A stretch of DNA of 64,000 nucleotides from Escherichia coli (GTDB lineage Bacteria; Pseudomonadota; Gammaproteobacteria; Enterobacterales; Enterobacteriaceae): assembly GCF_048403405.1 (NCBI RefSeq), contig NZ_CP183135.1. One strand, 5' to 3'. Position 1 is the first letter of the stretch; every line of letters begins with the position of its first letter. Of the stretch, positions 9,001-12,000 are shown piece after piece. Made by a program: the position numbers.

Positions 9001-12000
9001 ACACCGGCGGCCTTTAATCGCGTGACCCGCCTGCCTGTTGTTGTGCCCGTAACCAGCGGAGGCAATTTTGCCCGCACTGCCGGCTTTGCGGTGTCGTTGG
9101 ATGGTGTTGGCATACGTACCACAGGTGTTGTACGTTGCGATCAACCCCGGACAATTGATATGAAAGCACGGGGCGGAAAACGACTCGAACGGGTTCCGGA
9201 GACTATCATGAACGAAGTTCTTGGCCGCCTGTCCACTATTCTGACTTGAACATGGGGTTTGAGGGGCAACTGGATGAAAACGTACGATTTAGGGCACTAA
9301 AACCGCTGTTGTCCCACCATTCTGGTGATTCCCAAACGTTATTTGGCTAAAAAGTAGTTTTGATGTGGTTTATTTTCCGAATTCCAAGCGCAGCCCTACT
9401 TTCTTGTGCGTATTTGCGTGTTTTGCGCAGTTTTGAAGTTCCGGTGATGCTGCCAACTTACTGATTTAGTGTATGATGGTGTTTTTGAGGTGCTCCAGTG
9501 GCTTCTGTTTCTATCAGCTGTCCCTCCTGTTCAGCTACTGACGGGGTGGTGCGTAACGGCAAAAGCACCGCCGGACATCAGCGCTATCTCTGCTCTCACT
9601 GCCGTAAAACATGGCAACTGCAGTTCACTTACACCGCTTCTCAACCCGGTACGCACCAGAAAATCATTGATATGGCCATGAATGGCGTTGGATGCCGGGC
9701 AACCGCCCGCATTATGGGCGTTGGCCTCAACACGATTTTCCGCCATTTAAAAAACTCAGGCCGCAGTCGGTAACCTCGCGCATACAGCCGGGCAGTGACG
9801 TCATCGTCTGCGCGGAAATGGACGAACAGTGGGGATACGTCGGGGCTAAATCGCGCCAGCGCTGGCTGTTTTACGCGTATGACAGGCTCCGGAAGACGGT
9901 TGTTGCGCACGTATTGGGGTCTGACGCTCAGTGGAACGAAAACTCACGTTAAGCAACGTTTTCTGCCTCTGACGCCTCTTTTAATGGTCTCAGATGTCCT
10001 TTGGTCACCAGTTCTGCCAGCGTGAAGGAATAATGGCCGAGCATATTGATATGTCCGTGGCAAAGCGGGGAGAGGCGTGCGATATCTTCATCATTCAGTG
10101 TTTCACCCTGCGCCCGGAGATGATCCAGGGCTGCCTGCATATAAATAGTGTTCCATAACACGACGGCGTTAGTGACCAGCCCCAGTGCGCCCAGTTGATC
10201 TTCCTGACCGTCGGTATATCGTTTTCTTATCTCACCTTTTTGACCGTGACAGATGGCTCTGGCAACGGCATGGCGACTTTCTCCCCGATTAAGCTGGGTC
10301 AGAATGCGCCGGCGGTAATCTTCATCATCAATATAATTAAGCAGATACAGCGTTTTGTTGATGCGCCCCACTTCAATGATTGCCTGAGTCAGTCCGGAAG
10401 GACGTTCACTTTTCAGCAATGAACGGACCAGCACTGAAGCCTGTACTTTGCCCAGCTTCAGGGAGCCAGCGGTCCGGATCATTTCGTCCCACTGAAGGAC
10501 TATTTTTGGCACTGTTGCAAAGTTAGCGATGAGGCAGCCTTTTGTCTTATTCAAAGGCCTTACATTTCAAAAACTCTGCTTACCAGGCGCATTTCGCCCA
10601 GGGGATCACCATAATAAAATGCTGAGGCCTGGCCTTTGCGTAGTGCACGCATCACCTCAATACCTTTGATGGTGGCGTAAGCCGTCTTCATGGATTTAAA
10701 TCCCAGCGTGGCGCCGATTATCCGTTTCAGTTTGCCATGATCGCATTCAATCACGTTGTTCCGGTACTTAATCTGTCGGTGTTCAACGTCAGACGGGCAC
10801 CGGCCTTCGCGTTTGAGCAGAGCAAGCGCGCGACCATAGGCGGGCGCTTTATCCGTGTTGATGAATCGCGGGATCTGCCACTTCTTCACGTTGTTGAGGA
10901 TTTTACCCAGAAACCGGTATGCAGCTTTGCTGTTACGACGGGAGGAGAGATAAAAATCGACAGTGCGGCCCCGGCTGTCGACGGCCCGGTACAGATACGC
11001 CCAGCGGCCATTGACCTTCACGTAGGTTTCATCCATGTGCCACGGGCAAAGATCGGAAGGGTTACGCCAGTACCAGCGCAGCCGTTTTTCCATTTCAGGC
11101 GCATAACGCTGAACCCAGCGGTAAATCGTGGAGTGATCGACATTCACTCCGCGTTCAGCCAGCATCTCCTGCAGCTCACGGTAACTGATGCCGTATTTGC
11201 AGTACCAGCGTACGGCCCACAGAATGATGTCACGCTGAAAATGCCGGCCTTTGAATGGGTTCATGTGCAGCTCCATCAGCAAAAGGGGATGATAAGTTTA
11301 TCACCACCGACTATTTGCAACAGTGCCGCCAGGAATGCCCGGCGCGCGGATACTTCCGCTCAAGGGCGTCGGGAAGCGCAACGCCGCTGCGGCCCTCGGC
11401 CTGGTCCTTCAGCCACCATGCCCGTGCACGCGACAGCTGCTCGCGCAGGCTGGGTGCCAAGCTCTCGGGTAACATCAAGGCCCGATCCTTGGAGCCCTTG
11501 CCCTCCCGCACGATGATCGTGCCGTGATCGAAATCCAGATCCTTGACCCGCAGTTGCAAACCCTCACTGATCCGCATGCCCGTTCCATACAGAAGCTGGG
11601 CGAACAAACGATGCTCGCCTTCCAGAAAACCGAGGATGCGAACCACTTCATCCGGGGTCAGCACCACCGGCAAGCGCCGCGACGGCCGAGGTCTTCCGAT
11701 CTCCTGAAGCCAGGGCAGATCCGTGCACAGCACCTTGCCGTAGAAGAACAGCAAGGCCGCCAATGCCTGACGATGCGTGGAGACCGAAACCTTGCGCTCG
11801 TTCGCCAGCCAGGACAGAAATGCCTCGACTTCGCTGCTGCCCAAGGTTGCCGGGTGACGCACACCGTGGAAACGGATGAAGGCACGAACCCAGTGGACAT
11901 AAGCCTGTTCGGTTGGTAAGCTGTAATGCAAGTAGCGTATGCGCTCACGCAACTGGTCCAGAACCTTGACCGAACGCAGCGGTGGTAACGGCGCAGTGGC

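Follow-up and report, generated by a model that had tools for sequence, protein, structure and literature searches.

The 64,000-nucleotide stretch of Escherichia coli DNA analysed here (the window) carries two class 1 integrons. Integron 1 runs rightwards on the plus strand from an IS26 copy, and integron 2 lies as its mirror image on the minus strand. At both loci an integron-type intI1 (truncated in integron 1) adjoins an attI1 site, a Pc promoter inside intI1 points toward the cassettes, and cassettes bounded by core sites are followed by qacEdelta1-sul1. Both therefore belong to the clinical, sul1-type class 1 integrons. When further intI1 or attI1 fragments or a third integron were sought across the window, none was found. 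Cassette boundaries were set by reading the GTTRRRY core sites at every junction, giving the following features.

10508-11327, transposase on the minus strand: IS26 that cuts the intI1 of integron 1; 820 bp, terminal inverted repeats GGCACTGTTGCAAA / TTTGCAACAGTGCC
11328-12009, minus strand: truncated intI1 of integron 1; nt 1-682, 227 native residues, P32_H39
12146-12729, plus strand: dfrA12 cassette; coding sequence 12154-12651 (NCBIfam trim_DfrA12, 385 bits, cutoff 360)
12730-13049, plus strand: gcuF (orfF) cassette; ORF 12763-13053, its stop codon inside the next core site
13050-13905, plus strand: aadA2 cassette; coding sequence 13059-13850 (NCBIfam ANT(3'')-I equivalog, 503 bits)
13906-15218, plus strand: 3'-CS copy 1; qacEdelta1 14014-14361, sul1 14355-15194
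29223-30535, minus strand: 3'-CS copy 2; qacEdelta1 30427-30080, sul1 30086-29247
30536-31430, minus strand: aadA5 cassette; coding sequence 31421-30633 (NCBIfam ANT(3'')-I equivalog, 449 bits)
31431-32046, minus strand: dfrA17 cassette; coding sequence 32025-31552 (NCBIfam DfrA1-like family, 301 bits, cutoff 250)
32183-33196, plus strand: complete intI1 of integron 2; 337 aa, R32_H39
33374-33398, minus strand: IRi, the presumed 25-bp outer inverted repeat of integron 2, then a Tn21-type backbone (tnpM region, tnpR, tnpA)

Cassette arrays and outer ends

A preliminary description of this DNA had named the arrays dfrA12-gcuF-aadA2 (integron 1) and dfrA17-aadA5 (integron 2). These cassette identities are confirmed by the NCBIfam models, by AMRFinder and by identical annotated records, AMRFinder calling dfrA17, aadA2 and aadA5 (100% identity) in records that match the window DNA at 100%. 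The gcuF ORF had no match among the NCBIfam models. In a record that matches this stretch exactly, it is annotated as a DUF1010 protein, WP_001336345.1. The first cassettes differ in their translation signals: dfrA12 has no Shine-Dalgarno sequence of its own, its ATG at 12154 standing 4 nt past the stop codon of ORF-11, and dfrA17 starts with TTG behind its own AAGGGAG.

The outer ends of the two integrons are unlike. IS26, annotated as such in matching plasmids as well and present in the window in four identical copies, severs the intI1 of integron 1 after nt 682. We looked for a hybrid promoter formed by IS26 and the truncated intI1 and reading into integron 1, and rejected this candidate: the outward-facing TTGCAA of the IS26 end (11315-11320) is not followed, at a distance of 16-18 nt, by any hexamer resembling a -10. 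Integron 2 ends at 33374-33398, which we take to be IRi. The Tn21-type backbone genes beside it are annotated in the matching plasmid record NZ_CP107063.1.

The two 3'-CS copies form a perfect inverted repeat of 1,313 bp, and their qacEdelta1 and sul1 genes carry these names in identical annotated records. They flank the segment 15219-29222, which is inverted relative to the closest plasmid and contains an IS4321-like element, chrA-padR-IS6100-mphR-mrx-mph(A), IS26, blaNDM-5-ble-trpF and ISCR1. An extra IS110-family element (IS4321/IS5075-like) lies at 15521-16846, and the antisense RNAs CopA and RNA-OUT are also present in the window.

Cassette promoters and other elements of the 5'-CS

Direct reading and a pattern search both gave two cassette promoters.

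11894-11922, plus strand: Pc of integron 1, PcW_TGN-10, TGGACATAAGCCTGTTCGGTTGGTAAGCT; -35 TGGACA 11894-11899, 17-nt spacer, TGN (TGG) 11914-11916, -10 TAAGCT 11917-11922
32270-32298, minus strand: Pc of integron 2, PcH1, TGGACATAAGCCTGTTCGGTTCGTAAACT; -35 TGGACA 32298-32293, 17-nt spacer, -10 TAAACT 32275-32270

They are the only two matches to TKGACA-N17-TAARCT in the window. The shuffled-sequence control gave 0.02 expected matches, and none of 100 shuffles contained two or more. The stretch 11886-11925 around the first promoter reads CCAGTGGACATAAGCCTGTTCGGTTGGTAAGCTGTA. The triplet 5' of the -10 is TGG in integron 1, an extended -10 of the TGN type, and TCG in integron 2, which has no TGN.

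In the scheme of Jove et al. 2010 (PLoS Genet 6:e1000793, PMC2791841), PcW is TGGACA / TAAGCT, PcH1 TGGACA / TAAACT, PcS TTGACA / TAAACT and PcH2 TTGACA / TAAGCT, and a C-to-G change creating a TGN upstream of the PcW -10 increases activity. Table 3 of the same work couples PcW and PcH1 to IntI1 R32_H39, and PcW_TGN-10 to IntI1 P32_H39. Integron 1 combines TGGACA, N17, TAAGCT and TGN with IntI1 P32 and H39, and is thus PcW_TGN-10; integron 2 combines TGGACA, N17 and TAAACT, lacking TGN, with IntI1 R32 and H39, and is thus PcH1. Both names and the coupled residues fit that table, so the promoter assignments of the preliminary description, including its coordinates for both promoters, hold on rereading.

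A generic sigma-70 scan called the PcH1 of integron 2, with 9 of 12 consensus positions, but under its 4-of-6 rule did not call the Pc of integron 1. The promoter was missed because TAAGCT fits the consensus at only 3 of 6 positions; the miss is an effect of the scan rule and not promoter absence. The activity expected of this Pc rests on the published effect of TGN.

The remaining elements of the 5'-CS and the attI1 sites were located as follows.

12013-12038, plus strand: inactive P2 region of integron 1, TTGTTA-N14-TACAGT
12022-12037: LexA box of integron 1, CTGT-N8-ACAG, overlapping PintI1
12064-12036, minus strand: PintI1 of integron 1, TTGCTG-N17-TAGACT
12099-12177, plus strand: attI1 of integron 1 (Rfam RF02912 'attI site', 71.2 bits, gathering score 56)
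12099-12149, plus strand: ORF-11 of integron 1; Shine-Dalgarno GGAG 12099-12102, ATG 12111, stop TAG 12147-12149
12145-12151, plus strand: crossover site GTTAGCC of integron 1
32012-32093, minus strand: attI1 of integron 2, with ORF-11 and crossover site GTTAGCC (Rfam RF02912, 68.8 bits, gathering score 56)
32128-32156, plus strand: PintI1 of integron 2
32155-32170: LexA box of integron 2
32179-32154, minus strand: inactive P2 of integron 2, 14-nt spacer

The attI1 site, ORF-11, PintI1 and LexA box are intact in both integrons (roles of PintI1 and the LexA box as in PMC8876359). An active P2, in which a GGG insertion brings TTGTTA and TACAGT to a 17-nt spacing, was looked for in both integrons and is absent, the spacer being 14 nt. 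Neither integron has the Pc-P2 configuration, and Pc is the sole dedicated cassette promoter because P2 is inactive in both.

These observations also bear on the chance that hexamers or spacers had been miscounted and that the promoters are really plain PcW, PcS, PcH2 or an active P2. We tested this reading and rejected it, its probability being negligible: the exact search returned N17 in both promoters, direct reading gave the TGG and TCG triplets, P2 has a 14-nt spacer without GGG in both copies, and nothing was found in its favour.

Two integrases that differ at residue 32

We compared the two 5'-CS copies base by base, starting 144 nt before the intI1 ATG and ending at intI1 nt 682. Over these 826 shared bp they are identical except at two positions. 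At intI1 nt 90, integron 2 has T where integron 1 has C; the codon still specifies Ser30, and the -10 is TAAACT in integron 2 and TAAGCT in integron 1. At nt 95, the G of integron 2 corresponds to a C in integron 1, a difference that substitutes P32 for R32 and produces the TGN. Both proteins have His at position 39. Translation thus confirms the coupling proposed beforehand, of integron 1 to IntI1 P32 and of integron 2 to R32.

The claim that only integron 2 keeps a full integrase also stands, with 337 codons at 32183-33196 against 227 residues in integron 1. The NCBIfam integron integrase equivalog NF011946 matches the integron 2 protein with 799.5 bits over profile positions 1-337 of 337, and the integron 1 remnant, with 537.8 bits, no further than positions 1-228 of the 337. 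We took R146, K171, H277, R280, H303 and Y312 to be the catalytic residues of IntI1. All six are present in integron 2, and integron 1 retains R146 and K171 only, having lost H277, R280, H303 and the catalytic Y312. Since the IS26 truncation has removed the catalytic tyrosine, the integrase of integron 1 must be dead, and its P32 change is therefore moot. Residue 32 is the sole difference between the IntI1 of integron 2 and the complete P32 integrase of pKP-13-14-NDM-9. Both forms are catalogued in RefSeq, as WP_000845048.1 (annotated on DNA identical to integron 2) and WP_000845039.1 (the P32 form).

Linkage between promoter and array

In a clinical E. coli series, PcH1 was found in 55 of 55 dfrA17-aadA5 isolates and PcW_TGN-10 in 9 of 9 dfrA12-aadA2 isolates (PMC9058876), and a Portuguese E. 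coli survey showed a like tendency, with exceptions (PMC4129628). We searched PLSDB with window positions 11890-12300 and listed 60 rows spaced evenly along the ranked matches. At least 1,748 PLSDB records contain the 5'-CS plus dfrA12. Among the sampled dfrA12-first records, 16 of 21 match the window at 100% over the interval that leads from Pc into dfrA12; four of the five others were fetched and carry PcW (one), PcH1 (one) and PcS (two). All 11 sampled dfrA17-first records have exactly two mismatches in the 5'-CS, and the four that were fetched all carry PcH1. A degenerate Pc scan of one genome per species returned 26 loci, mostly in environmental species, none with dfrA12 or dfrA17; PcW, PcH1, PcS and PcW_TGN-10 all occur among them. 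The linkage between Pc allele and array is strong, not absolute. Since dfrA12-first integrons with PcW, PcH1 or PcS exist, Pc alleles can switch arrays, or cassettes can switch platforms.

These results bear on the origin of the two integrons. One platform could have been duplicated within the plasmid lineage, the two Pc differences then arising in place by mutation, and the otherwise identical shared segments (826 bp of 5'-CS, 1313 bp of 3'-CS) are what a recent duplication would give. However, these segments vary hardly at all across clinical class 1 integrons in general, with more than 4,600 plasmid records at 99% identity or above, so that their identity is uninformative on this point. Both differences sit exactly on catalogued polymorphic sites, and each Pc allele recurs with its array in numerous unrelated plasmids and genera. 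Moreover, the arrays have no cassette in common, and one platform ends at an IS26 cut, whereas the other ends at IRi and a Tn21-type tnpM/tnpR/tnpA backbone. We thus regard in-place divergence after duplication as very improbable. Independent origins, as suggested in the preliminary description, are well supported, each Pc variant travelling with its own array across unrelated plasmids and hosts and the outer contexts being different.

Discussion

Our analysis indicates, with near certainty, that two standard clinical (Tn402-derived, sul1-type) class 1 integrons lie facing each other on one IncF blaNDM-5 plasmid, each with the Pc allele usual for its array. In each of them Pc lies inside intI1 on the opposite strand and transcribes the promoterless cassettes, an established arrangement. 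In integron 1, PcW would be strengthened by the C-to-G change that makes the TGN extended -10, the same base turning R32 into P32. Integron 2 would depend on PcH1, with a weak -35 and a good -10 (TAAACT), published as about 3-fold weaker than PcW_TGN-10. Translation of dfrA12 is likely coupled to that of ORF-11 (mechanism as in PMC8876359), since this gene lacks a Shine-Dalgarno sequence and its ATG follows the ORF-11 stop so closely; dfrA17 would be translated from its own Shine-Dalgarno.

Different cassette expression, anticipated as probable in the preliminary description, is backed by published reporter data. Relative to PcW, lacZ fusions gave activities of 4.5x for PcH1, 7x for PcW-P2, 15x for PcW_TGN-10 and 25x for PcS (PMC2791841). 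From the approximately 15x and 4.5x of the two variants concerned, transcription of the integron 1 array should be roughly 3-fold above that of integron 2. The outcome of the sigma-70 scan agrees with this view, the Pc of integron 1 depending on its TGN. The promoter difference might nevertheless have no functional effect, resistance being set by the copy number of the plasmid, by translation signals and by the position of each cassette, with full clinical resistance already conferred by either array. The unlike translation initiation of the first cassettes (dfrA12 near the ORF-11 stop, dfrA17 with AAGGGAG and TTG) is consistent with this, and array expression is known to be shaped by translation (PMC11511950). 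However, resistance rates are higher in strains with PcS or PcW_TGN-10 than in strains with PcH1 (review PMC8876359). We think it unlikely that the promoter difference has no effect.

Integron 2 encodes what should be the most excision-proficient integrase variant, a complete IntI1 R32_H39 behind an intact PintI1 and LexA box; excision by IntI1 P32_H39 is 336-fold below that of R32_H39 (PMC2791841). As its intI1 lies behind an intact LexA box, SOS-inducible expression would be expected from published work (PMC8876359). Integron 1 has an intact attI1 and intact cassette boundaries, and from published work its attI1 and attC sites could also be substrates in trans for this integrase. One may speculate further, and only tentatively, that the two integrons divide labour, integron 1 being the high-expression, recombination-dead partner and integron 2 the lower-expression one that would supply SOS-controlled IntI1 R32_H39 in trans. 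Cassettes might then pass from one array to the other, as from the PcH1 array into the attI1 site behind the stronger promoter, and the blaNDM-5 segment might be flipped by the inverted 1.3-kb copies of the 3'-CS. We hold this extended scenario to be possible and rather doubtful.

Both configurations, their strengths and their array associations are already known, having been published from 2010 on and being present in very many sequenced plasmids, and both arrays are among the commonest in Enterobacterales. The consequence of our results is mainly one of annotation, with little importance beyond it. The Pc variant helps to predict the expression level of resistance to trimethoprim and to streptomycin/spectinomycin. 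It also helps to predict how readily the arrays are reshuffled, as only integron 2 can make an integrase, and that of the most active variant.

Comparison with known plasmids and with the published Pc scheme

The window is the resistance region of a blaNDM-5 plasmid of E. coli belonging to IncF (FII/FIA/FIB), and is near-identical to p675SK2_B (NZ_CP027703.1). This plasmid is 100% identical over window positions 1-12200, which take in the truncated intI1, Pc and attI1 and reach the beginning of dfrA12, shares the cut of intI1 by IS26 after nt 682, and shows 99.9-100% identity over most of 39100-64000. pKP-13-14-NDM-9 (NZ_MN175386.1) is 100% identical over 9916-20000 except for the 3' part of intI1, which is missing from the window. 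The identical stretch spans Pc, attI1, the three cassettes and the 3'-CS, on to mphR, and unlike the window this plasmid has kept the full P32 integrase (WP_000845039.1). Plasmid record NZ_CP107063.1 is 100% identical over 22800-36000, a stretch comprising blaNDM-5, ISCR1, the 3'-CS, aadA5-dfrA17, intI1 (WP_000845048.1), IRi and the start of the Tn21 backbone, apart from an extra IS26 in the tnpR of the window with an 8-bp target duplication (GCATTGGG). Integrons with PcH1, R32_H39 and dfrA17-aadA5 in a Tn21-type backbone are widespread on E. coli IncF plasmids.

Tables 1-3 of Jove et al. 2010 contain both promoters together with the IntI1 residues 32 and 39 coupled to each, with no departure from that scheme in the window, and the two configurations in the window are two of the five common ones described there.

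Inverted repeats around the blaNDM-5 segment

The two integrons of the window end in the same qacEdelta1-sul1 segment (3'-CS), and its copies at 13906-15218 and 29223-30535 form perfect inverted repeats of 1,313 bp. They enclose the following:

15219-29222, 14 kb: IS4321-like element, chrA-padR-IS6100-mphR-mrx-mph(A), IS26, blaNDM-5-ble-trpF and ISCR1

The otherwise near-identical plasmid p675SK2_B (NZ_CP027703.1) carries this segment in the opposite orientation, as would be expected from homologous recombination between the 3'-CS repeats. The integron to which blaNDM-5 and ISCR1 seem attached therefore varies with the flip state. 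p675SK2_B also differs in lacking the approximately 1.33 kb at 15521-16846, located between the 3'-CS/orf5 region and chrA, which contains:

15776-16780, minus strand: 334-aa ORF, annotated in pKP-13-14-NDM-9 (NZ_MN175386.1) as an IS110-like IS4321-family transposase

attI1 sites and cassettes

Both attI1 sites match Rfam RF02912 (12099-12177, plus strand; 32012-32093, minus strand), a family entitled 'putative aminoglycoside riboswitch / attI site'. In both integrons the matches stand before dfrA genes as first cassettes, which fits RF02912 being a plain model of attI1. The riboswitch is disputed by a 2022 paper (PMC9410878).

In the stretches 12111-12157 and 32081-32023 (minus strand), which run from ORF-11 of attI1 into the start of the first cassette gene, ORF-11 ends in both integrons at the TAG within the core site GTTAGCC. 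We counted 12 sense codons, whereas the literature names it as an 11-aa ORF. dfrA12 has no Shine-Dalgarno sequence and starts 4 nt past the ORF-11 stop; dfrA17, unlike dfrA12, is provided with AAGGGAG and a TTG start codon. Further along the first integron, the gcuF/orfF ORF (12763-13053) reads through its own attC, and its stop (TAG, 13051-13053) comes from the core site of the next cassette, aadA2. The gcuF/orfF protein had no match in NCBIfam; public records label it DUF1010.

Antisense RNAs

Two antisense RNAs were found, each at 99 bits:

5941-6031, minus strand: CopA of the IncFII replicon
46930-46999, plus strand: RNA-OUT of IS10

Around RNA-OUT, matching plasmids annotate tet(B), which suggests that Tn10 is present in this part of the window.

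IS26 copies

IS26 occurs four times with the same sequence (10508-11327, 22807-23626, 33896-34715 and 62093-62912), three copies lying one way and one the opposite way. Matching target duplications flank only the third; the others, including the one truncating intI1, are thus probably traces of IS26-mediated rearrangements or deletions. The third copy interrupts the Tn21-type resolvase gene tnpR (ATG at 33875) a few codons in, breaking it, between 8-bp direct duplications (GCATTGGG; 33888-33895 and 34716-34723). This insertion distinguishes the window from NZ_CP107063.1, a plasmid matching 22800-36000, where it is absent.
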